In this document: positions 1,619 to 54,705 of the stretch, piece by piece
Position numbering within the stretch: position 1 is the stretch's first letter
How the letters are laid out: the number at the start of each line of letters is the position of its first letter
Origin: Stramenopiles sp. TOSAG23-3
Taxonomy: Eukaryota
NCBI GenBank assembly: GCA_900128585.1
Contig: LT642150.1
Coordinates: forward strand, 1-64,000
Direction: 5' to 3'
DNA length: 64,000 nt
Position numbers and translations under genes: made by a program
The notes under the pieces: generated by a model
Databases searched by the model: none
Told to the model about the DNA's origin: nothing
What the model saw: only the letters and a program-made list of their open reading frames with translations

Positions 1619-2188
1619 ATGAACACTATCCCAAGTGTAATAATCCTCTTCGTCGCTTTGTCTTCTATGGGCAGGCAAGTCCTGGCTCAAAGCGACCCCA
1701 AACATGTTTGTGACGAAGGCAATTGCCGTTATGCCAACTCTACTGGTCGCACAATTTTTGCAGCTTGCCCTGGGGGGGGCTGTTCCTATGGGTCTTGCGA
1801 AGGAGGTTTCTGCCGGTATGGGTACTGTGGCGGTTCAAATCCTTGCACTTACTCTAGTTGTGCTGGTGGTGGATGCCACTATGAGAATTGTTTGTCCGGA
1901 AAATGTTCTTATGATACTTGCCAAGGCGGGGTATGCCGTTACGGAAATTGCACAGGCGCTTGTGTCTACCATTCATGCGTAGGTGGTCTCTGTAAATATG
2001 GATGGTGTGCAAACGGCGAGTGCAACTATTACTTCAAAGATGAGCAAGACGCAGGATGTGCAGGCGGGTTATGTCGCTACGAAAATTGCGCTGGTATTGG
2101 TAAATGCCTCTACGGCCCTTGCAACGGGGGATTGTGTCACTATGGGACTTGCGAGGCTGATAATTGCCAGTATCGTCAAAAGGCTTAA
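1619..2188 (+). CDS. Secreted Cys/Gly/Tyr-rich decapeptide-repeat protein (189 aa)
   Basis: First ATG at 1619 gives a signal peptide (MNTIPSVIILFVALSSMGRQVLA), followed by 14 C-x(3-5)-C-x-Y repeats with 28 Cys. The ORF is GC-richer than its AT-rich flanks. Confidence 0.85.
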   Translation: MNTIPSVIILFVALSSMGRQVLAQSDPKHVCDEGNCRYANSTGRTIFAACPGGGCSYGSCEGGFCRYGYCGGSNPCTYSSCAGGGCHYENCLSGKCSYDTCQGGVCRYGNCTGACVYHSCVGGLCKYGWCANGECNYYFKDEQDAGCAGGLCRYENCAGIGKCLYGPCNGGLCHYGTCEADNCQYRQKA

Positions 2189-2405
2189 GTTGGCTATGCT
2201 TAACAAAGTACGATGGAAAAAAGGTTACCATAAAACTGTGGCACTTTTGAACTCCTCATTCTCTTCTCTAATAATGAAAAGATTTTTTTATATATTGCAT
2301 ATTGGGAAATGGCCTATATAATAAATATAAGAATACATAATAAAATAATAAGTATAATTTTGAAGAAATTAAATACCGTACTGAACTGTAATGGAAAAAA
2401 AATAC

Positions 2406-2772: not shown

Positions 2773-4878
2773 ATGGAGAAAAAGCCGGCGCTGTACGCGA
2801 ACGAGCATGACGATATTTGGTGCGCTGCACGACGTGGCGATAGTCGCGCCGTGTTGAAGTTTCTGCAGCGTGGAGCTGATGCGAACATAGAGGACGAGTG
2901 TGGTAATGCGCCACTATATTATGGTGTTTTATACGGTCATATTGAGGTAGCAAAAAAGCTGATCGATTTTGGTGCGAATATACACGATATTGATAAAATT
3001 AGCGAGGAGTTATATGACCAGCTGCGTTCCTACAAGCTCGGCAGGCCCATAACCGTAGACAAGGGGGCAGCTGCTGGTCCGGCGGGCAGTGAAAGTGGCG
3101 AGGCATACGATAGGTCAGAAATAGCCCAACCTTTTGATTTGACACCAATTAGACTAAAACGCAGGAAAAGAACGAAACCAACGGCGTCCGAAGCTCTAAT
3201 AGAAGCGAGGAAGAACATGATCCTTACGAGAGGGGAGGAGTGGACAAAAAAATTAGAGCAAGTTGCAGCCAATAGAGAAAGCCAAAAGGAGAGAAGAAAA
3301 TGGCTTTCGCAAGTAAATAGGGCATTCTGGTTGCAGCAGCGTGAGAAGCATGAGCGTAAATGGATGGCAAAGCGTAAGATGGTAGATGCACAAGTTAGAT
3401 TTACTGATGAGCAACGAAAAGAATTGAGGAAATGGTTCGAAAGTTTAGATGCCGATGGCTCCGGAGAAATATCCTTCGTGGAGCTTGCTGGACCACTGCT
3501 TTCCACCGGGATTGCCACCACTCAACGAGAAGTACAAGATATAATAGATCGTCACAAATCTGATGTCACGGGAGGTATAGATTTCGAATCGTTTATGGCA
3601 CTTCTGAAGCCGGCGAAAAAAATAAACATAAAAAAGTTATATGAACGGTTAGACAAAAACCCTTTGCTCGATGTCGAAAAATTAGTCCGTGAAGCCGAGG
3701 AGGAGAAAAAGAATTCAGCCGCCAGAGCAGCATTTGAAAACTTAAAGGATCAGCTGACATCGGCGGAGGCAGAGAATCCGATGGATATCGACTCATTGAT
3801 ATCATTTACTAGAAGGGAAAAAATTATGAAGCAGTTGAAGACGTCCATCATTCGTAAGTACGAGTCTATGGAGCAACCAAGTGATAGTTTAGCAACAGAG
3901 CCCACTGTTTCCCCGAAAAGATTGTCGCCGCCAAACGGTCTGGGCAACAGTTCAGACCCACTGCCCTCGTCTTCCCCCCAAAGCACAGAAAAGACGGGGC
4001 AATCAAAGGCGTCCGAAGATTTTCAGCGAAAACTGATGCAGAGAAAAATTGCCCGAGATCGGCTACGGCGTCTGGACAATCTATCATGTCTCCAAAGAGT
4101 TGTAAGGGGAAGCATGGAAAGTGGGACAAGGGTGTCCTATTATGATGGGGAATTGCCCCCCGAAAATAACGATAAAGTGCGAACTTACGAGGACTTTGAT
4201 CGGCTACTTCCCACGTTAAGACCGCCAGCACAACTGCGTGCCCTGCAAAACCATCGGCAGTGGGACTTCTGGTTAGCACGTGCCAAAGGTGGAACTATTG
4301 AATATGATTCAGAAGATGAAGAGGAAGAAAATTTTGTGGAAGAGGTGGCCAATCAGTCTAATTCATTTACGAGGGGCCGCTCCGTGATTAGCGAAGATAC
4401 AGAGGGAATACTAAAGACCCCAGTGAAAACAAGGAGAAACACAAATAGTACAGCACTCGCCCAGACTTATAGTCGAAGCCCGGCTGCAGTGGAAAACGCG
4501 CTTTCACCGCACCAGGTAAATATTGAAAGGAGGTTTTCCAAGTTTTTAAAGCCGACACGAGCAGATATAATTAGGAGAAATAAGCATAAGGTGCGCCGGC
4601 AGTACTTGAAGAAGAAAAAAGTCCACCTTCCTGCACTGGGTGAATCGAAATCTGCTCCGAAATTAAAAGCAAATACGACGTATTATCAACAAAGGCAAAC
4701 ATCTTCTGGCAAAAGAAGACGATCGAATAAGAACAATAAAGTTGGATCATCTGCTAGCTTGACAACTTTAAGCACAAAACAGCCAATGTTTGCCGTTACA
4801 GTTGGCAATGGGCTTGTGAACGCGAAGATTGTGGATTTAAATTTATCCACAGGATTTCCGGCGAAGGAAAGAGGATAA
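2773..4878 (+). CDS. Ankyrin-repeat + EF-hand protein with basic low-complexity tail
   Basis: N-terminal ankyrin motifs (AARRGD..LQRGADAN; GNAPLYYGVLYGH), a canonical EF-hand DADGSGEISFVEL plus a degenerate second hand, and coiled-coil segments. Confidence 0.85.
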   Translation: MEKKPALYANEHDDIWCAARRGDSRAVLKFLQRGADANIEDECGNAPLYYGVLYGHIEVAKKLIDFGANIHDIDKISEELYDQLRSYKLGRPITVDKGAAAGPAGSESGEAYDRSEIAQPFDLTPIRLKRRKRTKPTASEALIEARKNMILTRGEEWTKKLEQVAANRESQKERRKWLSQVNRAFWLQQREKHERKWMAKRKMVDAQVRFTDEQRKELRKWFESLDADGSGEISFVELAGPLLSTGIATTQREVQDIIDRHKSDVTGGIDFESFMALLKPAKKINIKKLYERLDKNPLLDVEKLVREAEEEKKNSAARAAFENLKDQLTSAEAENPMDIDSLISFTRREKIMKQLKTSIIRKYESMEQPSDSLATEPTVSPKRLSPPNGLGNSSDPLPSSSPQSTEKTGQSKASEDFQRKLMQRKIARDRLRRLDNLSCLQRVVRGSMESGTRVSYYDGELPPENNDKVRTYEDFDRLLPTLRPPAQLRALQNHRQWDFWLARAKGGTIEYDSEDEEEENFVEEVANQSNSFTRGRSVISEDTEGILKTPVKTRRNTNSTALAQTYSRSPAAVENALSPHQVNIERRFSKFLKPTRADIIRRNKHKVRRQYLKKKKVHLPALGESKSAPKLKANTTYYQQRQTSSGKRRRSNKNNKVGSSASLTTLSTKQPMFAVTVGNGLVNAKIVDLNLSTGFPAKERG

Positions 4879-5121: not shown

Positions 5122-8100
5122 TTACTGAAACAAGCTGACAAGGCCTGGGTTTGACAAAGTATCGTTTGTAGCTTTTGCCTTTTTCTTGTCAAATGGTTCA
5201 GTTGACGTAGCAAGGTTTTGGATACTAAATTTTGTTGCGACCAGGATACTTTCTTTTGTGTCTCCCGTTTGACCCATTTTTAAAGCACAATCCTGCAAAA
5301 AACTTTGCACAATGCCTCTTTTCTCTCTTTCGCTTTGTTTTGAATTGAGAAGCTTACTATCAAATTCTTTGATTTCAGATTCCGATACACCGGGAATTAG
5401 CGAAACGATTCGTCGGGCTTCGTTCGAGGAACCGTGCACACCCATACCACTGTTCCCCCCACCTTCGTGTACTGGTATCCACCCAAATGACATCCTGCAA
5501 TACATACTATTAATCAACGCTATCAAAAAGTTCTGGTGGATTTTCCCGTGGTCTTTGTTAGTGAGAAGAACTTGCAGGGCTGAGGCCAAAAGGTGACTAA
5601 GCATTCCATGGTTCTCCACGTGTTTAGTTAAAAATGGCAATATTCGCTCTGCCAGTAGCAACGTGGAACGCAGGCACTTGGTATCGGGCCATAAAAATGC
5701 CGAAGACAACGCATAAATAACCTGCTCTTTCATGCGAGCATCTGCAACCAACAGCTCTCCCAATTTTGTCAAATATGCCGGTGATGGCGCTCCCACTTGT
5801 TTGACAATTTTGCCATTTCTTTTCACTAGTGGTTTTTGTGGAAACAGGGCTCGCAGCAGCGTGAGGTATTCTCGGCTTACCTCTCGAATTAGTCGCTCGT
5901 CTACCATCAGTTTGACATCTGGGTCCATACCCATCGGAAAATGCCAGGGAACGCGTTGCGCCGGGTCAATGTACCACGATTCCCATGTTTTATTGAGCAT
6001 TCCTGTTAAGTGCTGCATAAATGGGTGTAGTAGAGGAAACAGTAGAGTAGGCACCAAGGGCAAAGGGCAAGTCAAAGAAAACGGATTCAAGAAAAGAGAC
6101 ATAAACATTTTCAAATGGCGGTGCTCCATAGAGTTCAAGCCCACAAAAATATTTTGTAGCATGAGCGAGTGAAGATTTTGAATGTCAAAAATCCCACCAA
6201 AACCATTCATGAAGCCGAGAGGATTTTGCAGGTAACTTATTTTCCCGTTCTGCATCGAAGCCGAATGTATTGCAGCAATCTTAATCAAGTCGTAGCATTC
6301 TCTGCGTAGATGAGTCATCAGTGAGGCGAGGTCTGCACCATTCTCTTCGGAGTTCGACACTCCTGTTGCTAACGCCACTTCCGATTGGTGAACACCAGGG
6401 ATGTTCAGAAAATGGTCTTCAAAGCCCATGGCAACGCGCACTTCTAGCGGTGAAATACGTTGCAACCAGCACATGTCGGATTTTTCTAATGGTTCCCGGA
6501 TCGGTGGTTCCCATATTTGGTGCAGGGTCTTTACCAAGGCGAAAATATTTGGTAATATTAGACTCCAGTTGTGGATAAATGGGTGTATCTTTGGGGCACC
6601 GTTTTGCTGCGGGGATCGGGCAGCTTTGGCGTGGCTTCGTTTGCCTACACACGAAAAAATCTGAAGGCATGAATATATTTTCCACCGCGTATCAGCGGAT
6701 GAACTTCGCAACATCGCGATGAAAGCTTGGGGAGATGACACCAAGCTCGTAGACGCATCCATTGTCCAGTCACGAAGTGGCGCCTCCATCATGTTATCCA
6801 AAAAACTCTTTTGCTCTTCAAATACAGAGATAGAATTGCTGACTATAACCATCATTTCATACAACAGGGCCTTTTCAGAGTCCATGATCTGGCTCGTGTT
6901 GATAAGTTCCAACACCCTATTTATGATATTCGGAAAATTTGGCAACATCTTCGCAGGAACCCTCATCGCAATCTTTATCAACGCCACCATGGCCTTCCGT
7001 CTGGCACTTTTCGTATCGTTGTGCAGGTCTCCAAGACCGGTTTTTCTTTGTAATTCAAGAGGGGTTTGAAATATGGTACTAGAGAAAAGCTTTTCGAGAA
7101 CAAACCCCAGTGACTGATCGTGATTCTTGAAGTACCCACCCTTGGAAAAGGTCGAGAGTCCAATCATTTGGCGACCTAGTAGCAGTGGGTCATCTGTTTT
7201 GTAATTCACCAGCATTTCTAAAATTTTGTGCAGCCCAGTTGAAACACCACCACCGTTGCTTAAACCATTTGCGGCCGTCATTTTTGCATTAAACGCCCCC
7301 AAAATTTTCTCCAAACAAATCGTAGCACCTTCTAATTGTATATACGCTGTGCTGAAAATCGTGCCATATGGGGTTCCCTCGCGGAGAGCGTTGGTACTCC
7401 TGGGAAAACTTTGCAGCACCTCTGCCATTCGCTGACGTATGTATTCGACCACTATTGTGGGGTATGCACCCGCGAGCGCTTTTATTGCCGATGTAATGCG
7501 GCTTCGGCAAACCCCTAAGCTTTTCAAAAATTCATCGTTGTCGTCAAAATCGAAAATGCCATACTGCGACACTGGCGTTTCGATAGGGTCTTCCGGGGAC
7601 CCATGGCGAAGGACTTTTTGGCCATACAATGAAATTAACCATGGAATGCGGTCCGCGACACATTTTGCTGTTATAAAACCATTCAGTCGCTCTAAAATAT
7701 AATACCAAGTACCAAGCATCCGCTCAGTAATCTTATAGCTAGGGTGTTGAAACATCCTGGAAGAAATTTCAACACACAAGACAACTACAGGGTCACTTGG
7801 TTGGAAACACTGCAAATGTATTTCGCCAATACAGCAAATTAGCTTAGCGATTTGTTGTTGAAATTTGTAGAGGTCTTCGTCGACTGGAAACTGGGCGTCC
7901 AGGGGCAGTGCAGCGCACGTTCGCATCACTAACATCACCGCCTCGCTTGCCGTAATCTTTGACGCATCTGTAAACGCTTTCCTGTTGCATAGTCCTGTCA
8001 TTGCTTTCGCAGATGCCATTCGTATCGGATGCGATGAGTCCTTTATGAGCACGGAAAAAACCTCCAACAAATTGCAGCCCGGCTCAAAGCAAGAGTCAAT

Positions 8101-8796
8101 CTGCATCCATTCGACAAACACACCGAGGCACTCCAGCGCACAAACTATCAGGATTTCTGCCTTTTTCGCGCTTCTATCAGAGTTAAATATTGAATACTGC
8201 TGATTCAAAACAATGTACAAAGATTTTATTATCACAGGAAGGTGTTTATTTATACCCTGCAGTACCTGATTCCGTCTTTTTGTCGGCATACAGGTGTTAA
8301 ACTCAGAGCTGCACGCGTCTTGGGCCAGTAAATGCAGCGCCCTGATTCCAACATACGCCTCCGTGTAATTAGTATTTATCAAGCCCAAAATGTCGTTGCA
8401 AAACGACGGCCACAACTGAGGCCATTCTCTTTTGGCCAATTCCGCCAGTAAACTAGAAATCGTTTCCCGGATCACTTTCGGACCTACCAAAATATCATTA
8501 AGGTGGCTTGAGGCAAATGAAAATATCTTCCGTTTCAATAAGTCTTTTCTATTTTGCTGCCACGTATTCCACTGCGACTTTAGGGCATCGTTAATGGAAT
8601 GCAAACAAAAATGCCGCAGTTCTACGTCTTCGCACGAAGATTTTTCGAAGAACACCACGGCTGCGTCAGCACCGCTCGGGGAGCTCTTAAAACTCTCCAA
8701 GTACTGCCCAGCCCGAGCGCGATCTTCATGCGAAGTGCTCGCCGCGTGGACAGCACGCAACGCCTGAAGTATTGTTTGCCTCTGTTGTTCAGCCAT
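5122..8796 (-). CDS. XPO5: Exportin-5-like karyopherin
   Basis: 1224 aa all-helical. Importin-beta N-terminal region (RARAGQYLESFK...LRHFCL) and Xpo1 motif AELAKREWPQLWP; overall length and C-terminal features fit exportin-5/Msn5/HASTY. Confidence 0.8.
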   Translation of the reverse strand: MAEQQRQTILQALRAVHAASTSHEDRARAGQYLESFKSSPSGADAAVVFFEKSSCEDVELRHFCLHSINDALKSQWNTWQQNRKDLLKRKIFSFASSHLNDILVGPKVIRETISSLLAELAKREWPQLWPSFCNDILGLINTNYTEAYVGIRALHLLAQDACSSEFNTCMPTKRRNQVLQGINKHLPVIIKSLYIVLNQQYSIFNSDRSAKKAEILIVCALECLGVFVEWMQIDSCFEPGCNLLEVFSVLIKDSSHPIRMASAKAMTGLCNRKAFTDASKITASEAVMLVMRTCAALPLDAQFPVDEDLYKFQQQIAKLICCIGEIHLQCFQPSDPVVVLCVEISSRMFQHPSYKITERMLGTWYYILERLNGFITAKCVADRIPWLISLYGQKVLRHGSPEDPIETPVSQYGIFDFDDNDEFLKSLGVCRSRITSAIKALAGAYPTIVVEYIRQRMAEVLQSFPRSTNALREGTPYGTIFSTAYIQLEGATICLEKILGAFNAKMTAANGLSNGGGVSTGLHKILEMLVNYKTDDPLLLGRQMIGLSTFSKGGYFKNHDQSLGFVLEKLFSSTIFQTPLELQRKTGLGDLHNDTKSARRKAMVALIKIAMRVPAKMLPNFPNIINRVLELINTSQIMDSEKALLYEMMVIVSNSISVFEEQKSFLDNMMEAPLRDWTMDASTSLVSSPQAFIAMLRSSSADTRWKIYSCLQIFSCVGKRSHAKAARSPQQNGAPKIHPFIHNWSLILPNIFALVKTLHQIWEPPIREPLEKSDMCWLQRISPLEVRVAMGFEDHFLNIPGVHQSEVALATGVSNSEENGADLASLMTHLRRECYDLIKIAAIHSASMQNGKISYLQNPLGFMNGFGGIFDIQNLHSLMLQNIFVGLNSMEHRHLKMFMSLFLNPFSLTCPLPLVPTLLFPLLHPFMQHLTGMLNKTWESWYIDPAQRVPWHFPMGMDPDVKLMVDERLIREVSREYLTLLRALFPQKPLVKRNGKIVKQVGAPSPAYLTKLGELLVADARMKEQVIYALSSAFLWPDTKCLRSTLLLAERILPFLTKHVENHGMLSHLLASALQVLLTNKDHGKIHQNFLIALINSMYCRMSFGWIPVHEGGGNSGMGVHGSSNEARRIVSLIPGVSESEIKEFDSKLLNSKQSEREKRGIVQSFLQDCALKMGQTGDTKESILVATKFSIQNLATSTEPFDKKKAKATNDTLSNPGLVSLFQ

Positions 8797-9291: not shown

Positions 9292-10749
9292 TTATGGGAT
9301 TTTAGGATCATTCCATTTCCCATGAAGTGTCCAGTCAGTCGGTTTCTTCTTCTTCTTTCCCGCTTTTCGTTTTAGTTTTCTCCCTCGCCTTTCTATCTTT
9401 TTCGCCAAAGGGTTTACTGGTTTGCTCCCCTTTTTACCAGGCCTGACCTCTGATTCTTTTTTCTGAAACGGGTTGTAACTAGGTGCATGGCGTTGTGCCA
9501 TAAACTCCTTCAAGTTTTCTTTTTTTGGATTGGAGTGCCCCTGGAATCGTTTGCTACTTATTCCAAAGCCCCTCGGGGACATATTTCCGTTACCACGACG
9601 GGTCCGTGATGCAGTCGATGGCCGCGTAGGCCTGTTGTTAGAAATGGACATTCCATCCTTTGTGCTTTCCTTTGAAGAGCCCTTCGCATTCAGCCGTGAG
9701 GCAGCAGACGAGGGTCTCACCCTTCTTCTGTTGGGCGGTCTCGCGTTTCCTTCTTTACAGTCTCCCGCGTCGCCAGTTTCTGCCCACAGACCTGGGCGCT
9801 GGATTGCACTAGTACCAAATCCACAGCTGCGCATATCACGAGGGGAAACAAAGCGAAACTTTTTGTTGTTGAGTTTTGGAAAAGGGACGATAGTTTCTGT
9901 CATCGGCAGTTGGAACATTTGGGAACAAAAGGGGCATAATTTAACTTGGCTGTAAAGCTTCGTCCAGTTGTTCTTTAGAACCCTCGGCATTTGTACTTTG
10001 AAGGGGAAATCTTCTCGCTTTTTCCATATGGCACGAAGAGTCACACTACCGCATAAATTTTCGGGTGTAAACCGTCGCTCACAAAGAGCACAGTCCACGT
10101 CCATAACTCTTTTGCTCGTCCCTGCGACCTCTGCGTCCGCTTCTGCGCTCTCTGCCACATTTTCACCAGTGTTGTGCAGGTTGTTCTGCTTCTTCCGACT
10201 GACACCCCTATCTTTTCTTCGATACTGCGTGTTTGTGTACGTTTCCACATAACGAACGTGCTGGTGGTTCCCAAAGTTCTTCCACATTTTCACACCAAAC
10301 TTTTCCGTAAGTTTCTGAAGAAGCTTTTTCCGCTTATATTCCTTGTCCTGCTCATGTACGTTTTTTCTCTTCTCTTCCATCATTTCTTCCATCATCAGCT
10401 CCCTCCCCAGCCTAATGACTAGTTGCTTCGGCTCGCCATCGGTGGATAGATTTCTATCTTCCAACTCTTCAATTATAGCTCGCAATTCTGCTTTCTTGAT
10501 CACCCTGGGCTTTGCGACAGCCGTAAACTCACCCCCTTTGATTAGGGCAGCGTCAGCAGAGGACATACTCTGATATTTTCTTGGTGCTCGGCACTGCTGG
10601 CAGCCTAGTCTAGGTTTCGTTGCGCAATATTTTGACCCGTGCAGCCCAACAAATTCAACGCTGCCACTGCCGTTAAAAATATCGTCGTTCCTTGTTCTGG
10701 GGTCTAAGAGCATAGAATGCAAAACTCCGGTGGCGAAAAAGATGACCAT
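9292..10749 (-). CDS. Uncharacterised protein with SAP-like motif and CxxC...CxxC zinc finger; alternative start at 10566
   Basis: KKAELRAIIEELEDRNLSTDGEPKQLVIRL is SAP-like, followed by CALC...LCPFC and a Lys/Arg-rich tail. The start codon is uncertain (10749 or 10566). Confidence 0.7.
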   Translation of the reverse strand: MVIFFATGVLHSMLLDPRTRNDDIFNGSGSVEFVGLHGSKYCATKPRLGCQQCRAPRKYQSMSSADAALIKGGEFTAVAKPRVIKKAELRAIIEELEDRNLSTDGEPKQLVIRLGRELMMEEMMEEKRKNVHEQDKEYKRKKLLQKLTEKFGVKMWKNFGNHQHVRYVETYTNTQYRRKDRGVSRKKQNNLHNTGENVAESAEADAEVAGTSKRVMDVDCALCERRFTPENLCGSVTLRAIWKKREDFPFKVQMPRVLKNNWTKLYSQVKLCPFCSQMFQLPMTETIVPFPKLNNKKFRFVSPRDMRSCGFGTSAIQRPGLWAETGDAGDCKEGNARPPNRRRVRPSSAASRLNAKGSSKESTKDGMSISNNRPTRPSTASRTRRGNGNMSPRGFGISSKRFQGHSNPKKENLKEFMAQRHAPSYNPFQKKESEVRPGKKGSKPVNPLAKKIERRGRKLKRKAGKKKKKPTDWTLHGKWNDPKIP

Positions 10750-12005: not shown

Positions 12006-12764
12006 ATGGATGAGTCAAGTGTTGTGTTGCCGTACCCAAATATGGTTACAGACTTCCTCAAACTTTGCCAGCTTGGTAATCTAAAAAATCTTAAAAATAT
12101 TGTTTATCCTGTTGAACCGTTGGGCGACGAAGAAGACGAAGAGGAAGAAGAGGTCCTTGATGCAGAAAAAGAGCCCGCTATTGATGTAAACATGTTAGAT
12201 GAAAAACAGATGCCAGGTATTTGTTTAGCTGCTCGTTCCGGACACGCCAAGGTAGTAGATTTCCTGATTGAGGCACACTGCGATATAGAAATGGCCGCTC
12301 CGGGAGGATTGCGGGCTATTCATCACTCTTGCAACAGCATACAAGAGGCTTGCCTGAGATCACTGGTTAACGCGGGAGCCGAAGTCAACTCAAAGGATGA
12401 CAATGGAAATACGCCGCTCTTCTGGGCAGCTTCACGCGGCGTGCTTGCGAACGCCCAAATACTCTTGCAAGCGAACGGAGACAAGACCGCCGTAAACAAT
12501 AATGGGGATACTCTTTTGCACCGCAGTGCAGCAAATGGCCACGTTATGATGTGTAAATTCTGGGTAAACAAATGCGAATTAGACGTAAATGCCCAAAATT
12601 CCATTGGTGACACCCCGTTGCATCTAGCAGTGAAGGCAGGCTTAGTTCAGATCGTCAATATTCTACTGGAGACTAATGCCGACAAATCGATAAAAAATAA
12701 GGAAGGGATGATCGCTGCTGAGTACGGAAGCATGCACGTAAACATTATGAAAGCCCTTGCTTAA
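12006..12764 (+). CDS. Ankyrin-repeat protein
   Basis: First ATG at 12006; about 5 ankyrin repeats (GNTPLFWAA, GDTLLHRSA, GDTPLHLAV) and an acidic insert near the N-terminus. Confidence 0.9.
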   Translation: MDESSVVLPYPNMVTDFLKLCQLGNLKNLKNIVYPVEPLGDEEDEEEEEVLDAEKEPAIDVNMLDEKQMPGICLAARSGHAKVVDFLIEAHCDIEMAAPGGLRAIHHSCNSIQEACLRSLVNAGAEVNSKDDNGNTPLFWAASRGVLANAQILLQANGDKTAVNNNGDTLLHRSAANGHVMMCKFWVNKCELDVNAQNSIGDTPLHLAVKAGLVQIVNILLETNADKSIKNKEGMIAAEYGSMHVNIMKALA

Positions 12765-15404: not shown

Positions 15405-16289
15405 ATGAAACGAGGGGCTTCTTTGGGTTGGGCATTTCTCGCAATAGCATCTTTGGTGTGCGTTGTAAATCCATTGGCATCGGCGGCTGAGAGCAGCACG
15501 GCCAAAGATAAAATCGTGTTGGGCCCGAATGCGAAGCTAGTGAATGAATTTATTCAGGCGGTAGGCAACGATGCTGAAGCGGCGAAGTTATTTTTGAAAA
15601 ATAACAAAGATTTTTTGAAAGATGGAGAAGGTAGCACTGCTTTAGTGGAGTCTGCAAAACGTGGGCACGGAAGGGTCGTTGAAGTACTGCTATCCAAGGG
15701 TGCGAACATACAGGGCAGCGACAGCAAAGGGAGAACTGCTGTACACTTTGCCGCGCTTTGCTCCAAGCAGCACCATGTTCGACATGGAATATGCCCAGAG
15801 GAAGTTGGATACAAGGGCGAAGAGTACGATTCCCACCACGACACCATGGAGCGTTTGGTACGATTTGAAGGGTCTCCTATGGACGCGGTAGATGATGAAG
15901 GTCGAACGGCGCTAATGTATGCGGCAATGCAAGGGCATAGTGATATTGTAGATGTCTTGCTGGAAAATGGTGCCGATCCTACGATCTCGGATAAGTCTGG
16001 CTGGTCTGCAATATTTTATTGTGCCCTGTACAACCGAGAAAAAATATTGGAAAAGTTGCTAAAAGACGGTAGGACGGACATCAATTCCAAAGATCTTATG
16101 GGGTACGTTCCGCTTGTGACGGCCAGTGAACAGGGCTGGAAGCAGTCCGTCCTTATCCTTCTTTCATTTGGTGCCAACCCCCTTATCAAGTGCCGCAACG
16201 GCAAGTTGCCCAGTGAACACGCACGTGGTTTTGGGCACACCGAAATCGCAGAAATTCTGCAAGAATATGAAAGGAGAAGTGAGCTCTAG
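15405..16289 (+). CDS. Signal-peptide ankyrin-repeat protein with KDEL-like C-terminus (RSEL)
   Basis: Hydrophobic N-terminus ending ASA-A, ankyrin repeats (GRTALMYAAMQGH etc.), ends ERRSEL*. Confidence 0.85.
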   Translation: MKRGASLGWAFLAIASLVCVVNPLASAAESSTAKDKIVLGPNAKLVNEFIQAVGNDAEAAKLFLKNNKDFLKDGEGSTALVESAKRGHGRVVEVLLSKGANIQGSDSKGRTAVHFAALCSKQHHVRHGICPEEVGYKGEEYDSHHDTMERLVRFEGSPMDAVDDEGRTALMYAAMQGHSDIVDVLLENGADPTISDKSGWSAIFYCALYNREKILEKLLKDGRTDINSKDLMGYVPLVTASEQGWKQSVLILLSFGANPLIKCRNGKLPSEHARGFGHTEIAEILQEYERRSEL

Positions 16290-22510: not shown

Positions 22511-24361
22511 TCAAAATATGAAGGCATGTTTTCCGCTATACCGTTGAGCGAATTCTCCACGCGACTTCATGGCCTCTAGATTGGATTCGAGGGTTTCAGC
22601 GTTATGGTTCAAGGTAGACTTATGCCTGTCTTGTACAGCAACCCCCAGCCCTTCTTTAAAGAACGCCAAGGCGACCGCCCTGTTGTCTTTTTGCAGCGCA
22701 CAGACACCCAAATTATTGTATAATATTGGGTCCACCCCGTATTTGTTCATTGCAGACTCATACATCCCGCACGCTTCCATAAGCTTTCCTCGCATGATTC
22801 TGAACTTAGCGAAATGCATTTCAGCTTTGAGCCCCACCGTTGGTGAATGCCACTCGATCCTGTCAAAATATACAGACGCTTCGTTCGTTCGTCCATGCTT
22901 CACGTAGTACTCAACAAGTTGATCCATAGAGCGCCAGTCCGTTGGATCAAGCTGTATCGTATGCTTCCACACGTAAACGTCGCTTCGCCATGTTAGAATT
23001 TGCCGGTAGGTAAAGAATGTGGAACACAAAAGCCAGAAAACGGCCGAGAATAAAGACAACGACCTCTTATTCCCCAACCACCCTTTCTTCAGTAGAGCAC
23101 GTTCCAACTCTTCATCTTCATAATCGCCATCCGTCTGCGGAACGTCGTCACTCGGAGTGACCGACTGGTACACAGCGCCAAGTAAGGCGCTAACCCCAAG
23201 CATTGGAAAATACATGTAGCGGTCTCCACCCATGGCGATCATACCGTGTTGAATGATTCCTACGGTCGGCAGCATGGTGAAAACAAAATATGCCCAAAAC
23301 GCAGCGAAACCCGACTTTTCCCTCCAAAAAGTCACTGCTACTATTGTTCCTGTGCAGAATAGCATAATGCCCAACAGAGCTTCGTTGGGAGGGTTGGTTA
23401 CGTCCAATTTCCATTCTTGAACCTGGTAGTGGGCCTGCAACTGGGCCGGCCAGATTGCCTTCCCAACAAAAATCCCAAATGTACAGAAAGCTTTCATTAT
23501 TCTTTGTGGCGTGTCCAACTTTTGCGTGTCGAGCATGGGGTTCGTGCCCTCGGCGTTGGCAGAAAGGGTTGCAAACAATGCACCAAAAACCGCGACGGCG
23601 TAAAGTACTCGCTTTGCACAGTACTTTACAAGCCTCTGAAATAAGTCTTTCAACTCTCCATCGTTCACGTTCTCAGTAGCAGCGAAATCAATGGCAAGGA
23701 CTGCTATGGGGAAAGTCAAAGCGACGCCTTTCGACAACACTGCAAGCACATAGCATGCGACCGAAAGGAGAAGCCATTTGTGGTCTACTTCATTCACGCT
23801 CACCTCTTCTGATGACTCACTGGGTGCACCTAAGTCGCTGCATTTGTACGCCAGTAGAGAAGCCAAGGCGAAGAAACAAGATAGACCATACGGATTGGCA
23901 CTCGGCCACCCAATAACCTCCACGTTTAATGGGTGCAGTGCAAAGAATAGAGAGCCGATAAGGGGTCCGTCTGTTGAAAATGACCCGCCGTGCCCTTCAT
24001 CTGTCAAGCGAAATTTAACAAAAGCCCACCGCAACACAAAGTACAACAGGACTGAATTTAGAAGGTGCAGACAAAATGTGCAGACACGATTTGCGTGCGA
24101 GTCGAGCCCAAAACAAGCAAAAATAATTGCTTTCATATACCACCCAAGCGGTTCCCAGACGTTGATTCGAACAGCATATGCCATCTCGACAATGTTGTCC
24201 CAATCCAATTTTCGAAACAAATCATTTTCCAAAAAGTTACTATCATCATCCCATGTTTGTATAAACGCCCACTCCGAGGAGGGAACCGTGTACAGAGGCG
24301 AATATGCAATGGCAGTGCACAAAACTATGGCCGAGAGTGAGACCACCAAAGGCTTCTGCAT
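22511..24361 (-). CDS. TMTC-like (GT-C fold) multi-pass membrane protein with short TPR tail
   Basis: WDDDSNFLEN luminal motif, LFFALHPLNVEVIGW, GDRYMYFP, TWRSD...W, then TPR helices (YNNLGVCA). Confidence 0.8.
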   Translation of the reverse strand: MQKPLVVSLSAIVLCTAIAYSPLYTVPSSEWAFIQTWDDDSNFLENDLFRKLDWDNIVEMAYAVRINVWEPLGWYMKAIIFACFGLDSHANRVCTFCLHLLNSVLLYFVLRWAFVKFRLTDEGHGGSFSTDGPLIGSLFFALHPLNVEVIGWPSANPYGLSCFFALASLLAYKCSDLGAPSESSEEVSVNEVDHKWLLLSVACYVLAVLSKGVALTFPIAVLAIDFAATENVNDGELKDLFQRLVKYCAKRVLYAVAVFGALFATLSANAEGTNPMLDTQKLDTPQRIMKAFCTFGIFVGKAIWPAQLQAHYQVQEWKLDVTNPPNEALLGIMLFCTGTIVAVTFWREKSGFAAFWAYFVFTMLPTVGIIQHGMIAMGGDRYMYFPMLGVSALLGAVYQSVTPSDDVPQTDGDYEDEELERALLKKGWLGNKRSLSLFSAVFWLLCSTFFTYRQILTWRSDVYVWKHTIQLDPTDWRSMDQLVEYYVKHGRTNEASVYFDRIEWHSPTVGLKAEMHFAKFRIMRGKLMEACGMYESAMNKYGVDPILYNNLGVCALQKDNRAVALAFFKEGLGVAVQDRHKSTLNHNAETLESNLEAMKSRGEFAQRYSGKHAFIF

Positions 24362-25213: not shown

Positions 25214-27511
25214 ATGTCCTTTTTCGATGGGGTTACTCCATCGACTTTATTAGCTGGTGGGAGTTCACTGCATGTCCCTGCACATGAAAAGCGGCAGAGA
25301 GTATCATGGTTTACATCAGGTAAGCAGAAAGAGGCCGTGCTTCGCCGAGGAAAGGTTGCGATGCCCCCACGCCGGCCTGCGACGACGTACAACGGAAGGT
25401 CGAGGGGTAACACCTGGGGAAGGCAAAACCAGCAGAATACCAATCGACCTCAGACACAAGGCCAGCGGTCATTTTCGCAGTATTTAAGCAAAAAGTCAAT
25501 TATTGCAAAGAAAAGATCCAGCGGTCCAGCCTCCAGATTAGGGAATGAGAAACCGACCAACGTGCGGGTTATTCATACCAAAAGGGCACAGCGCGTCCAA
25601 GAAGCGATCGTTGCTTCTGGGGGATATAGATCGTCGCCACTCTCATTATTTGTGAAGTTAAAAGAAAAACTTCACTCCCGTGGTGTGACCAAGGACAAAA
25701 GCGTTGCAGCATGCGTAGAAATCCTAGAGAAAATGGCAGAAGACAAGTCCCAGGCAATAAGCGAGATGATGGAGGAAATGCTCCCACTTATTGCGAATGC
25801 CATTTATGCAGATAGTGTGACACGGAGCGTGCCGTTTTACAATCTGACGAAACAACTGGAAAGCGAAAATAAAGAAATGAAAATCCGAGAAGCCAAATTT
25901 GACACAAAGTTAGAGATGCATAGAAAGGCTCGAGAAGAACTGATGAAGCAAGTGAGGTCGTTAGAAATTGGGGTAGATTTATACCAGCAGAAGTTAGAAA
26001 AGGAGAAAACCGCAAATAAAAAAGCAGCAAAGATAAACAGAGTGCAACGTAAAAAGATGAATCATGCCACAGAGCAGAATCTGAGTCTCTTGGGTATGGT
26101 AACAAGCTCTGAATCGGAAAGACAAGATGCTGAAAAAGAGCATCGCACTAAAATTATGAAGTTGAACGACGATCTTGTGGCTTCGCAGGAAAATTGTAGC
26201 GCTTTGTCTTCTGCCTTGCGGGTATTGCAGATGGAACTCGAAAAATTAAAGAATCCGAAAGACGATCAGTCCGAAATTAGTCGTTTGAGCAAGGAGTTGC
26301 AAGAAGTCAAAAATACCTTGAAAATGCAGCGTGGACAATATTTACAATTGGTCGACAACAAAGCGTCCAAACCTCGTGGGGATGACGAGTTTTATGCTCA
26401 TTTGGTTGGAAGTGTGAGCCCCTTGTTACCCCCCGAGCACATGTGGACCGGAAAAGTGAGAACACGATTGCTTACCCCAAACGAATTAAGCGCGTTCATA
26501 AACCAAGCATGGACAGAATATGTAGATAATTTTGGTGCTGGGTTAGACGTGTGGAAATTTGATTCACTCCCAAACGCAGGTAATGACGAGCCAAGCGCAG
26601 ATATGTTCAACGTTTTGGACCATTCTAATAGTTTTAGCACTTGGTTGCCGGGCCATTTGCTACGTTCAGAGTCTGAATGGCTGCATCACCAATTGATATG
26701 GGGAAAAATTAACCTTCATCCAAAGAAAGAGAAACAAATGCTGAAAGAGGTTTTACCGCAAGTGTTTATTTCAAATGTCAAAGAATCCTGTATCAAATGG
26801 CAGGGTAAGAGCACTAAATTCACAATATTTCACGGTATTTTGTCAAGGAGTGTTCATGAGGGCTGCTACGCCGACCAGCTTGACATGGTTAGTGCTCTAC
26901 GGAAAGGATTGGTGCAGCTCGATACGGAGAACTCCGGAATTTTGGCGTACAGCCAGATTGACGATTTCTTACGGTCATTTCTTCCACGAACAGTGGAGCA
27001 TGAGTTTGACTTTATTGATACTTATGGGAGAAGCTCAGGGTTTTATAAATCGAAAATCGCATATGGCAACTTGTTTGAGGGCCACGACAAAAATGGCCTT
27101 CTCCGAGAACTGCTGTCTTTGCACGTGGCAAGTAGCATGGACTTCAAGGAAAAGCTTCAGTGCACAGTAAGATCATATAAGGGTATCGACAATTGCGTCG
27201 ATGCAAATGATATTCGTACGGCGATCATAGAAGTGGATCCTCTCCGACCAAAAAATTCCGTTGACAATTGGGTGGGTTTATTTTTACAGCACTCCGAATA
27301 CGCAACGAAGATGAGAAAATCCTCCAAGCACAGAAGCAAGAGGAAGTCTGTGTCTGTTGAAGACGAAATGGAAACTTTAAAAGCGAAAGCTGCAGCGTTT
27401 GCTGCAGCCAGAGATAAATACAAGCGCGTCCCAACCGATGATATCGTCGACGCATTGAACTACTTTTTCGTGCGGGAATTTGGCTGGTGGAGGAACGAAG
27501 CGGAAAAATAG
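25214..27511 (+). CDS. Coiled-coil protein, TSNAXIP1-like
   Basis: Long coiled coil, then HMWTGKVRTRLLTPNELSAFINQAW, an EF-like LDTENSG segment and AIIEVDPLRP, resembling the TSNAXIP1 C-terminal region. The ORF is certain; the family assignment is tentative. Confidence 0.55.
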   Translation: MSFFDGVTPSTLLAGGSSLHVPAHEKRQRVSWFTSGKQKEAVLRRGKVAMPPRRPATTYNGRSRGNTWGRQNQQNTNRPQTQGQRSFSQYLSKKSIIAKKRSSGPASRLGNEKPTNVRVIHTKRAQRVQEAIVASGGYRSSPLSLFVKLKEKLHSRGVTKDKSVAACVEILEKMAEDKSQAISEMMEEMLPLIANAIYADSVTRSVPFYNLTKQLESENKEMKIREAKFDTKLEMHRKAREELMKQVRSLEIGVDLYQQKLEKEKTANKKAAKINRVQRKKMNHATEQNLSLLGMVTSSESERQDAEKEHRTKIMKLNDDLVASQENCSALSSALRVLQMELEKLKNPKDDQSEISRLSKELQEVKNTLKMQRGQYLQLVDNKASKPRGDDEFYAHLVGSVSPLLPPEHMWTGKVRTRLLTPNELSAFINQAWTEYVDNFGAGLDVWKFDSLPNAGNDEPSADMFNVLDHSNSFSTWLPGHLLRSESEWLHHQLIWGKINLHPKKEKQMLKEVLPQVFISNVKESCIKWQGKSTKFTIFHGILSRSVHEGCYADQLDMVSALRKGLVQLDTENSGILAYSQIDDFLRSFLPRTVEHEFDFIDTYGRSSGFYKSKIAYGNLFEGHDKNGLLRELLSLHVASSMDFKEKLQCTVRSYKGIDNCVDANDIRTAIIEVDPLRPKNSVDNWVGLFLQHSEYATKMRKSSKHRSKRKSVSVEDEMETLKAKAAAFAAARDKYKRVPTDDIVDALNYFFVREFGWWRNEAEK

Positions 27512-27966: not shown

Positions 27967-28764
27967 CTACACGTGGGAAACGTTAGTGCCCCCTTTCCCC
28001 CAAGCAAGCTTGACTTTTTGAGGATACAGTGCGTTTTCCTCCACGCTCTCACCATCGCTACTATCGCCGCTGTCCTCGCTCTTCTCCTCCGAGCTTGTAG
28101 TTACAATGGATTCACCTTCGCTGCTTTCTTCATCAGTTACGGGTTCGCCTGCTGATAGCCCTAACCTCAACTCACGATCAAGAGTATACACGATCTTTTC
28201 TTCTCCCTCTATTTCAAAACCCTTCACACTGGCATCGGCAGCATCTGCCAGCAGTTCATAAGTGCTTGAACCGAACGACACTTTGCACAACCTTCGGCAG
28301 TCTTTTCGACTGAAAGTCGAAAAAGCGCCCCAGAAGACACAGGCGGCAGACAATGGTATCATTCCCATAAACGGCTCTATTGTGAAGAAAAGAAATGTCC
28401 AAGCCGCGTACGTATGCCCGATTGCGAGCCAGAATATCGGTATATATTTGCACCTCAGCGATGCCTTGGCCTTTCCTTTGGTGCCTCTTTTAATGTAATT
28501 GCAGGACCACAACGCTGGTGGGGGCCATTTGATAACGATCAAATGTATTGCCCCAGCGTGGAAATAAAACAAGATGACTGTAATCACGGATGAAAATATA
28601 CTGACTAAAGAAATGTCCCCGTACGACCTATGCCATCTTTCGTACGGGAAGTAAGGGTTGTTCATGCGAGTTACAATAACGCAGGTAAAACACCCCAGCA
28701 GCATCCCACCAAACAACGAAATCGCCGGAAGTAGTAAGCGGCACACTTTATACGGGCGGCACAT
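27967..28764 (-). CDS. Uncharacterised membrane protein (~4 TM) with acidic C-terminal region
   Basis: First ATG at 28764; four hydrophobic segments and a Ser/Glu-rich tail; no family recognised. Confidence 0.7.
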   Translation of the reverse strand: MCRPYKVCRLLLPAISLFGGMLLGCFTCVIVTRMNNPYFPYERWHRSYGDISLVSIFSSVITVILFYFHAGAIHLIVIKWPPPALWSCNYIKRGTKGKAKASLRCKYIPIFWLAIGHTYAAWTFLFFTIEPFMGMIPLSAACVFWGAFSTFSRKDCRRLCKVSFGSSTYELLADAADASVKGFEIEGEEKIVYTLDRELRLGLSAGEPVTDEESSEGESIVTTSSEEKSEDSGDSSDGESVEENALYPQKVKLAWGKGGTNVSHV

Positions 28765-53163: not shown

Positions 53164-54705
53164 TTAATACCTCATGGTCTGCAGAAGCAGTGCATCTTCG
53201 TCGTCTCCATCGTCTCGCAGGAGCTGATCAAACTCATCGATAGTACTAGCTTCTTCCGTTAGACGCGGCAAAATGACCGTGAGTATTCGACGGCGAGTCA
53301 TGAACAGACGCAGTGCACTGAACGTCCACAGTGACGCCCATAAAAACGGTGAGTAGTGAAACTCATAAAAGGCAGCCCCTACGCACAAAATAAAGGGTAT
53401 GCTGGACACAATGGTTGCGTTCAGAAGAAATCGAAAATCCAAAGATGCAAAAAGCAGGGACTCGTACACTTTCAAAACAATCGTCGTGGTTTCTGTGGCA
53501 AGAAACAAGATCATGCCCAACCAGCTGGTCATGCCCGCGGCATCGGCCAACTCTTCCCCGAGCATGTACGGTGCCAACAGGATGGAGATCACTGATGCAA
53601 GCAGTCCCATAAAGAAACCAGCCGTGGGAAGCTTTTCTGCCAAGGTTTGAAAGTCATATGGATTATAAACACGGTAAATTTCATTCAAATACTTACATGC
53701 GACGACAATGATAGAGCACCCTAGTGCGCGTCCACACACACCAGGTATGTTGCGGAGTCGGCGGATCACTTCAAAAGCAGAATTAACGGTCCACTTCCAT
53801 TTCTCGCTGTCGGCATCAAATATTAAAGTGACTGTAGCATCAATGAAAAGTAAGATGCAGGCTCGAAGGCCCATGACCAAAGAGTCCTCCCACATTTCGG
53901 ATCTCACCTCATTGTAAAGGTGGTCGTCTCCGCGACACCAAAAAAAGCAAAAACGGCAAGGCGGGGAACAGTTTTCCTTGTCTTGGGAGGTTATCTCGGC
54001 GAGGGCGGCCTTCAGTCTGTGGGAGCGAAGGGCCCGCTTGTACATGTAATACGCAGCGACGCTTGCGATTAGATCGGACACGGCGACCCCAAGCAAGCCG
54101 ATTTTAAAGACATATAAAGACAACAGCACCCCAGCCACCCACAATACTGACTGGATTGAGAACACCCATAATATCAGATCAACCCGGTGAATGCCAAGGA
54201 AGACGGGGAATGCGCACGCGACGACTACGACGCGGAAGGGCAAGGCAAAAAATCTAATCAACAAGTGGACCCACAGACACATGTACGGAGAGTCGGCATC
54301 GCAGAATCGTTTATGCTTGAGAGGCGAAAATAATTCCTTGGGCACGACCTCCATATGACCCGCAAACTGCAACAATACGACCGCCGCTGCGGCAATTATT
54401 GACCCGTAGAAACTGATCACATGAGCAATGCGAATTCTTGTAGCAACGACCTTCTTCTGCCCAATAGCCTCGTCGCTGGCGATTCTTGACGCGATAGGCT
54501 CTAACATCATCACTGCAAAAAAATTAATGATATGCCGTAGCACAAAATCCGCATAGTCAAATTCATACAACCCAAAGTCTTTCAATTCATCCTCTAAACA
54601 AACCCGCACAATGTGGTCAGCAACGTGTTTTAACAGGCCAATAAAGAGCATAAAAATCAAAAACTTCACCAGCCTCTCGCCCATCCCCCCAAACGCAGAT
54701 TTCAT
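53164..54705 (-). CDS. Divergent MATE-like multi-pass transporter
   Basis: About 12 hydrophobic segments in two halves. LLIRFFALPF...VFLG...GLLGVAVSDLIAS resembles the MATE YLxIRxxxxP...G...GxxGAAxAT pattern. Confidence 0.65.
   Translation of the reverse strand: MKSAFGGMGERLVKFLIFMLFIGLLKHVADHIVRVCLEDELKDFGLYEFDYADFVLRHIINFFAVMMLEPIASRIASDEAIGQKKVVATRIRIAHVISFYGSIIAAAAVVLLQFAGHMEVVPKELFSPLKHKRFCDADSPYMCLWVHLLIRFFALPFRVVVVACAFPVFLGIHRVDLILWVFSIQSVLWVAGVLLSLYVFKIGLLGVAVSDLIASVAAYYMYKRALRSHRLKAALAEITSQDKENCSPPCRFCFFWCRGDDHLYNEVRSEMWEDSLVMGLRACILLFIDATVTLIFDADSEKWKWTVNSAFEVIRRLRNIPGVCGRALGCSIIVVACKYLNEIYRVYNPYDFQTLAEKLPTAGFFMGLLASVISILLAPYMLGEELADAAGMTSWLGMILFLATETTTIVLKVYESLLFASLDFRFLLNATIVSSIPFILCVGAAFYEFHYSPFLWASLWTFSALRLFMTRRRILTVILPRLTEEASTIDEFDQLLRDDGDDEDALLLQTMRY

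Follow-up and report, generated by a model that had tools for sequence, protein, structure and literature searches.

A putative secreted protein of 14 C-x(3-5)-C-x-Y units and its unnamed family of short-repeat relatives

We analysed the first 64,000 nucleotides of contig LT642150.1 of Stramenopiles sp. TOSAG23-3 (the window). A gene at positions 1619 to 2188 of the forward strand encodes the protein described here, which we call the target. Its sequence suggests a secreted protein built of short repeats and braced by disulfides. Proteins of this kind were known before, while the C-x(3-5)-C-x-Y family to which the target belongs has no name. We see about an even chance that the target is a cell-coat or matrix protein, shaped as a core-less ribbon or rod, held by disulfides between nearest-neighbour cysteines and studded with tyrosines.

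The target is encoded by a complete single-exon coding sequence of 189 codons with a TAA stop, as read from the translation of 1619-2188 (+). Its start is the first ATG of an open frame that begins at 1586 and runs up to the TAA without interruption. The 189 residues include 28 Cys, 16 Tyr and 33 Gly. We counted 14 units that fit C-x(3-5)-C-x-Y, and in 14 of 14 a tyrosine stands two residues past the second cysteine. An earlier note on this DNA had reported 14 repeats, 28 cysteines and an invariant tyrosine at Cys+2, and the counts confirmed all three. Its title spoke of '14 CxGGxCxY decapeptides'. The number of units stood, but strict CxGGxC was found in only 7 of 14 units (2, 3, 5, 7, 9, 11 and 13) and a length of exactly 10 residues in only 8 of 14. 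The 27 Cys-Cys spacings comprise 22 of five residues, the rest being 4, 6, 6, 12 and 14. The loop is one residue longer in units 4 and 12 and one residue shorter in unit 8. After the tyrosine, unit 1 carries a 9-residue insertion and unit 10 a 7-residue insertion, and unit 14 has two extra residues at its end.

The units alternate with a period of about 20 residues. The residue before the tyrosine is R, H or K in 7 of 7 odd units and in 0 of 7 even units. From unit 3 to unit 13, the odd units show CxGGxC in 6 of 6 cases, and all changes in loop length are confined to even units. This is exactly the super-period that the earlier note had described, with its basic residue in odd units and its indels in even ones. 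We shuffled the mature sequence 100,000 times, and no shuffle reached any of the observed values: the maximum was 10 C-x4-C spacings (22 observed), 9 C-x-Y (14 observed) and 4 CxGGxC (7 observed). The repeat pattern is not a product of chance.

The units are also found in other proteins. An exhaustive phmmer search with the single target sequence against 1.84 billion representatives, with no length limit, gave 11 proteins at E≤1e-3. Seven of them bear the same units (P0002, P0003, P0004, P0005, P0007, P0010 and P0012), and a profile search, in which 3 of 5,821 candidates passed, added P0013. P0002 and P0003 are 57% and 61% identical to the target and cover its N-terminal 68 and C-terminal 59 residues. 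Between them, these two fragments preserve its start and stop regions, its NST sequon and the two long insertions. When the target was compared with these two, the cysteines and the tyrosines at Cys+2 were identical in 23 of 23 positions, and the other positions in 44 of 78.

This comparison can be followed along the gene, all on the forward strand. Unit 1 (CDEGNCRY) and an 11-residue linker with the N-x-T sequon N40-S-T occupy 1709..1765, and both the linker length and the NST are kept in P0002. Units 2 to 10, up to Tyr137, lie at 1766..2029 and alternate between strict CxGGxC and variable loops. The acidic insertion after unit 10 (YFKDEQDAG, residues 138-146, 2030..2056) has an equal length and a similar sequence in P0003. 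It may be a hinge which divides the array into 10 and 4 units. Units 11 to 14 follow at 2057..2185 with the C-terminal tail RQKA and without a hydrophobic anchor, and P0003 ends at the same point.

We found 28 CxGGxC-type units and 25 others in eight proteins of the family, and one of the 25 is a false match within a membrane segment. The CxGGxC-type units have tyrosine in 26 of 28 cases and phenylalanine in 2 of 28. In P0003, P0004, P0005, P0010 and P0007, too, strict CxGGxC units alternate with units whose loop varies (3-5 residues), and this is a property of the family. We define this family by an N-terminal hydrophobic signal followed by at least three tandem C-x(3-5)-C-x-[YF] units with strict/variable alternation, all of which we found in the target. 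It contains nine sequences with the target included (P0001-P0005, P0007, P0010, P0012 and P0013), and it has no name. None of the eight relatives had a Pfam match at E≤0.1. Separately, residues ~95-180 of P0004 form an Arg-rich low-complexity tail after five good units, which looks out-of-frame or mis-assembled.

The target itself matched 0 Pfam families and 0 PDB sequences at E≤10, and the ESM Atlas gave no usable match, which agrees with the earlier note that no named family is recognisable. An EGF-like or VSP-like assignment found no Cys-rich Pfam domain at E≤10; the target has no CxxC, and its smallest Cys spacing is 4. We also scanned bacterial and archaeal genomes with the target alone, a search that detects close relatives only. 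One of 27 pattern matches was confirmed, in a Herbinix metagenome-assembled genome. It lies antisense inside a 517-residue open reading frame (ORF) and was rejected as spurious.

The relatives also bear on the question of whether the gene is real. The guanine-plus-cytosine (GC) content is 49.3% in the coding sequence, 33% in both flanks and 45-52% in neighbouring genes. Because of this GC step, the matching start, stop and insertions of the relatives and the invariant Cys and Tyr, we conclude that the target gene is real and under purifying selection. If the frame were open by chance or a decayed repeat, the result of the word-indexed homology search with the single target protein (0 of 324 candidates at E≤0.01) would be expected. 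However, the GC step and the shared ends and insertions speak against such an origin, as do cysteines and tyrosines which stay invariant while other positions diverge and a pattern far outside the shuffles. We consider it scarcely credible.

The array does not look recently duplicated. Tandem Repeats Finder detected no DNA-level tandem repeat in the gene, and the mean nucleotide identity of the eight regular units was 57%. Codon use in the array is mixed (TGC 16 and TGT 12; TAT 9 and TAC 7; all four Gly codons 7-9 times each). These results mean that the periodicity is maintained at the protein level and does not stem from a recent DNA expansion. The repeats are old at the DNA level. There was also no paralogue of the target within the window, where the best tblastn E-value after the self-match was 0.76.

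Next to the repeats, the N-terminus points to secretion. Residues 1-23 (1619..1687, +) form a probable signal peptide by hydropathy, with cleavage after VLA (V-L-A/Q) judged by eye. Residues 7-17 (VIILFVALSSM) are a hydrophobic stretch, hydrophobic 15-mers start at residues 1-8, and the second of two low-confidence AlphaFold2 models has a helix at residues 8-14. The signal peptide in the earlier note is thus supported as far as hydropathy and reading by eye go. The relatives add to this. The C-terminal tails of P0005, P0010 and P0013 are hydrophobic and contain Cys, and P0007 has a hydrophobic segment followed by ~95 further residues. Since four relatives have such membrane segments, the array is probably an ectodomain and extracellular. 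The target and P0003 lack an anchor, and both stop shortly past the last C-x-Y.

The mature part of the target has about 166 residues. Gly, Cys and Tyr make up 46% of it, and Cys alone 17%. Its aliphatic and aromatic content is low (5 Leu, 4 Val, 2 Ile, 3 Phe and 1 Trp; 15 in total). With so few hydrophobic residues and so much Gly, Cys and Tyr, the protein would have no conventional core, and disulfides would have to hold it together. The 28 mature cysteines are an even number.

This cysteine content could also suggest a thiol metal binder of the metallothionein kind, or a redox buffer, with its cysteines kept in the reduced state. We regard this as very improbable. The hydrophobic N-terminus and the anchored relatives imply the oxidising secretory pathway, and the even count, the lack of CxC and CxxC clusters and the smallest spacing of 4 do not suit a metal binder. 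Moreover, CxGGxC is a disulfide loop in solved structures (PMC6542541, PMC9177688).

A more serious candidate is a small Cys-rich secreted effector, toxin, antimicrobial peptide array or protease inhibitor, which acts on other cells. Small size, secretion, cysteine richness, no known domain and a narrow family are general hallmarks of effectors and toxins, and the target shows all of them. However, relatives are membrane-anchored, and a regular 14-fold repetition in which only Cys, Gly and Tyr are conserved has more in common with a scaffold than with the surface of a binding site. Nor has the gene expanded into paralogues within the window. The identity to the relatives (57-61%) is close to the 58% of the exportin-5 homologue encoded in the window, although the same source organism is not established for the two comparisons. 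Since these identities are close, we see no sign of unusually fast evolution. Altogether an effector or toxin seems improbable.

We then considered how the cysteines may be paired. The arrays open with a first Cys and close with C-x-Y, long insertions occur only after the tyrosine, and loop length varies only between the two cysteines of one unit. The positions of array ends, insertions and loop-length changes fit disulfides within units (C1-C6), 14 in number with none left over. An offset pairing would leave the first and last cysteine unpaired and would have to span linkers of 11 and 13 residues. We infer the C1-C6 pairing from these features of the sequence.

Structure prediction gave little detail. 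The mean predicted local distance difference test (pLDDT) of AlphaFold2 was 42.3 with the single sequence and 45.2 with an 8-row alignment, which leaves target residues 58-137 without an aligned relative. Both models contained a few short hairpins and no solenoid. Foldseek with the second model (pLDDT 45.2) returned 0 of 186 matches at E≤0.001, and this model is too low in confidence for the result to be meaningful. In the first low-confidence model, 3 of 3 hairpins have their turn in a C-x4-C loop, at its positions 3-4 (G62-G63, N132-G133 and A180-D181), and in the second, also of low confidence, 2 of 3 do so. Gly-Gly and Asn-Gly favour two-residue hairpin turns, and cross-strand disulfides favour the pair that flanks such a turn.

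A precedent for such a loop exists in human antibodies. When we searched open-access full text for the motif strings, only antibody papers matched. The third complementarity-determining region (CDR3) of the heavy chains of AR3C, HEPC3, F10 and 8f9 has the identical hexapeptide pattern, of which the target holds 7 copies. According to passages on the crystal structures of AR3C, F10 and 8f9, the Cys pair of CxGGxC is an intra-loop disulfide, and the motif forms the tip of a β-hairpin with Gly-Gly at the very tip (PMC6542541, PMC9177688). The antibody motif is a single loop on an immunoglobulin scaffold, whereas the target carries a tandem array. This is a precedent at the level of the motif and not homology.

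Putting these features together, we propose the following for the target. The two cysteines of each unit would pair with each other, so that 14 disulfides join nearest neighbours and no thiol stays free. The Gly-Gly loop would be a tight β-turn and the x-Y-x-x connectors short strands. Two modules C-x(3-5)-C-x-Y-x-x, the first with strict CxGGxC and the second with a variable loop, make up a pair of 20 residues. Without a buried hydrophobic core, the chain would form a stiff disulfide-braced β-ribbon or a flattened coil, and its 14 tyrosines would lie at regular intervals at or close to the surface. The super-period of 20 residues, which the relatives share, speaks for a structural unit of this length and against a plain coil of 10 residues. 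In the same sense, a tight GG turn next to a length-tolerant turn would suit an antiparallel meander or a flattened 20-residue coil, not a uniform 10-residue coil.

In the relatives, the array would be displayed outside the cell on a C-terminal membrane segment. The anchorless copy of the target would be released or retained in the coat. We infer that a structural or adhesive role is most likely, as a component of the cell coat, wall or matrix, and that an enzymatic or signalling role is less likely. The tyrosines may allow cross-linking, which occurs in many Tyr-rich extracellular materials. The N-x-T sequon of the target is conserved in its closest relative.

Several points weigh against this coat or matrix protein with nearest-neighbour disulfides. 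The signal peptide and the membrane segments of the relatives rest on hydropathy and reading by eye. Both structure models are of low confidence, and Foldseek found no match for the one searched. Other regular disulfide pairings may be possible. The basic residue before the tyrosine in odd units has no explanation in this architecture and is not conserved among the relatives. Finally, the neighbours of the gene are housekeeping genes and give no functional clue.

The earlier note had proposed a solenoid similar to the midge antifreeze protein (AFP). The published passages describe the midge AFP as a secreted protein with a tandem repeat of ~10 residues and a Cys pair 5 apart, whose turns contain Gly, with a single Tyr in each repeat and virtually no hydrophobic core (PMC13080227, PMC9418140, PMC4838330). 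They give eight disulfides in 8.2 kDa (PMC4838330). A row of seven stacked tyrosines is presented as its ice-binding site, and the change of the central Tyr into Asp abolishes activity (PMC9418140). The description of this protein in the earlier note agrees with these passages, whereas its motif string, xxCxGxYCxG, did not occur in the literature searched.

The target shares with the midge AFP the secretion, the 5+5 Cys spacing, the glycine turns, one tyrosine per repeat and the lack of a hydrophobic core. The spacing of 5 in 22 of 27 cases and the 10-residue length of 8 of 14 units agree with the midge pattern. The register does not. The target unit reads C-x-G-G-x-C-x-Y-x-x with the tyrosine at Cys+2, where the midge motif, as quoted in the earlier note, has glycine, and in that quoted motif the midge tyrosine directly precedes the second cysteine. 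Since the register of the tyrosine differs, a coil, if there is any, would not copy the midge geometry. Furthermore, the target has the 20-residue super-period, variable loops and 14 units where the midge AFP has about 8, and some of its relatives are anchored in the membrane. Any fold of the target is hypothetical, and even that of the midge protein is a model. By analogy, the target could resemble the midge protein in being core-less and disulfide-braced, which does not imply membership.

A solenoid of the midge type, with ~10 residues per coil, one disulfide per coil and a single tyrosine ladder that binds an ice, mineral or polysaccharide lattice, would explain the 5+5 spacing with one Tyr per roughly 10 residues and the near absence of hydrophobic core residues. 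A stacked Tyr row can bind ice (PMC9418140). However, a conserved 20-residue alternation and loop changes of ±1 are unexpected in a uniform 10-residue coil, and the tyrosine stands at what would be a glycine position in the quoted but unconfirmed midge motif. Neither AlphaFold2 model (pLDDT 42.3 and 45.2) is a solenoid, and membrane-anchored relatives suit a surface coat better than a freely diffusing antifreeze. We therefore consider this solenoid unlikely.

A bolder possibility is that the C-x-G-G-x-C-x-Y array is an independent invention of the midge AFP design. It would be a novel minimal core-less ribbon or solenoid with one disulfide per five-to-seven-residue loop and one or two tyrosine rows at β-sheet spacing. 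Protists would carry it on their surface, where it would attach to a solid of periodic structure, for example ice, silica, calcite or a crystalline polysaccharide. We think this unlikely, and ice binding by the target is pure speculation.

The five-residue spacing also recalls pentapeptide repeats, whose Rfr fold has four pentapeptides per coil. The target resembles them in its five-residue periodicity, with a small inward residue at every fifth position and a 20-residue higher period. It could then be a four-sided β-helix with 20 residues per coil and cysteines pointing inward at i-2. Tyrosines (faces 2 and 4) and glycines (faces 1 and 3) would take the central positions, and the tyrosines would be buried. 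The only PDB match of the family profile is compatible with this: a single chain, 9nyi_A (HalA), with a run of C-x-[F/L/Y]-x-x pentapeptides at E=0.089. This value is not significant, however, and no Pentapeptide family of Pfam matched the target at E≤10. The register shifts by +1, -1 and +1 at units 4, 8 and 12, so that 3 of 14 units, together with 8 units in relatives, change their loop length by one, which a strict 5-residue face would not tolerate. The target also differs in being secreted and Cys-rich, with glycine in half of the would-be core positions. Moreover, in a secreted protein we would expect the 28 cysteines to be oxidised, and the Rfr geometry would not obviously permit this. 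Such a helix is decidedly improbable.

The four phmmer matches that lack target-type units led to one more comparison. By Pfam, P0006 is a VWC-domain protein and P0009 has no match above the curated cut-off. P0008 and P0011 are bacterial, with a type IX secretion system (T9SS) sorting tail and 5-15 Dicty_CTDC repeats. Repeats of the Dicty_CTDC type build matrix and spore-coat proteins of Dictyostelium. Like the target, Dicty_CTDC (PF00526, a 24-residue repeat) consists of extracellular, short, Cys-rich tandem repeats with about 4 Cys per 20-24 residues. The phmmer E-values of the target against these proteins (4e-5 for P0008 and 2e-4 for P0011) could reflect Cys-rich composition. With hhalign, the family aligned to P0011 over 17 columns at a probability of 76.7%. 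Against PF00526 itself (gathering score 27 bits), the target had no match at E≤10 and the eight relatives none at E≤0.1. The C-x-D-x-x-x-C-T-x-D half of Dicty_CTDC is absent from the target, and the tyrosine is not conserved in Dicty_CTDC. We thus read the likeness as a resemblance at the motif level, which does not suggest membership. We also noticed C-x-G-G-x-C-x-Y strings inside the 23-24-residue repeats of P0011. The local motif thus seems to recur in a repeat family whose relation to the target is very distant or absent.

Other comparisons were less close. The AFP of Tenebrio molitor is described in the published passage as a disulfide-braced β-helix of 12 residues per coil, with one internal disulfide in each (PMC13080227). 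The target resembles it as a short-coil repeat, the coil-internal disulfide being the Tenebrio feature. It differs in period (12 residues in Tenebrio) and in having Tyr where Tenebrio has a Thr-x-Thr face, and there was no PDB sequence match at E≤10. In open-access full text, we found neither 10-residue Cys-rich solenoids nor diatom wall proteins rich in Cys, Tyr and Gly that resemble the target. ChloroIBP, an algal ice-binding protein called 'cysteine-rich', has been modelled as a pertactin-like solenoid with three sides, one of which carries 15 Cys, and was set aside as not comparable. Diatom frustulins and Tyr-rich surface proteins yielded nothing usable. The searched part of the text on AC3362 of Amphora makes no mention of cysteine.

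If the nearest-neighbour disulfide model is true, the units of the target would be among the smallest self-standing repeat modules known, with 10 residues, one disulfide and no hydrophobic core. They would make a useful design scaffold and would represent a second natural repeat architecture of only Cys, Gly and Tyr beside the midge AFP. In any case, an unnamed family of probably extracellular proteins is now defined from a thinly sampled eukaryotic lineage. Should the target be ordinary coat material, the value is modest: the orphan families of secreted Cys-rich proteins would grow by one, for which a clear motif definition and relatives are at hand.

The rest of the window is gene-dense, with long uninterrupted ORFs. 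They include exportin-5, Pus10, Sec1, a kinesin, arginase, PP2C, ankyrin proteins and an SMC/Rad50-like ATPase. The source genome is intron-poor. No functionally suggestive neighbour of the target was found among the ORFs scanned against Pfam, and the window contains no tRNA genes and no Rfam matches. The exportin-5 homologue (5122-8796, -; 1224 residues) has only two relatives in 5.8 billion sequences. Since these are only 58% and 49% identical, the source lineage seems to be thinly sampled.

A 616-residue ORF at 22511-24361 (-) has no Pfam match at 1e-5, and its Atlas features lead to TPR/TMTC_DUF1736 clusters, as would suit an O-mannosyltransferase-like protein. The one eukaryotic cluster that the Atlas lists for it is commonest in Bacillariophyta (diatoms), a weak hint at the lineage. 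An oomycete start-site motif was not enriched in the window (3 matches, with 3.68 expected) and lends no support to a lineage. Five further long ORFs of 265-765 residues have no Pfam family at E≤1e-5 and may encode lineage-specific proteins: 9292-10749 (-), 25214-27511 (+), 27967-28764 (-), 53164-54705 (-) and 58529-60481 (+).

Downstream of the target, the first AATAAA after the stop lies at 2320..2325 (+), at an offset of 132 from 2189, and is a candidate polyadenylation signal. The 33%-GC spacer 3' of the gene also holds a near-perfect palindrome (2406-2472) with 19-nucleotide arms, 95% complementary and separated by 29 nucleotides. It occurs only once in the window and could be an element that forms a hairpin, or what is left of a small mobile element. 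Upstream, low-complexity A/T-rich and purine-rich runs in the spacer 1037-1417 give spurious ORFs on both strands, and this stretch is probably promoter or spacer sequence. Three ankyrin-repeat proteins are encoded within 14 kb on the forward strand (2773-4878, 12006-12764 and 15405-16289), and the first of them, with 701 residues, has by eye an apparent EF-hand-like stretch.

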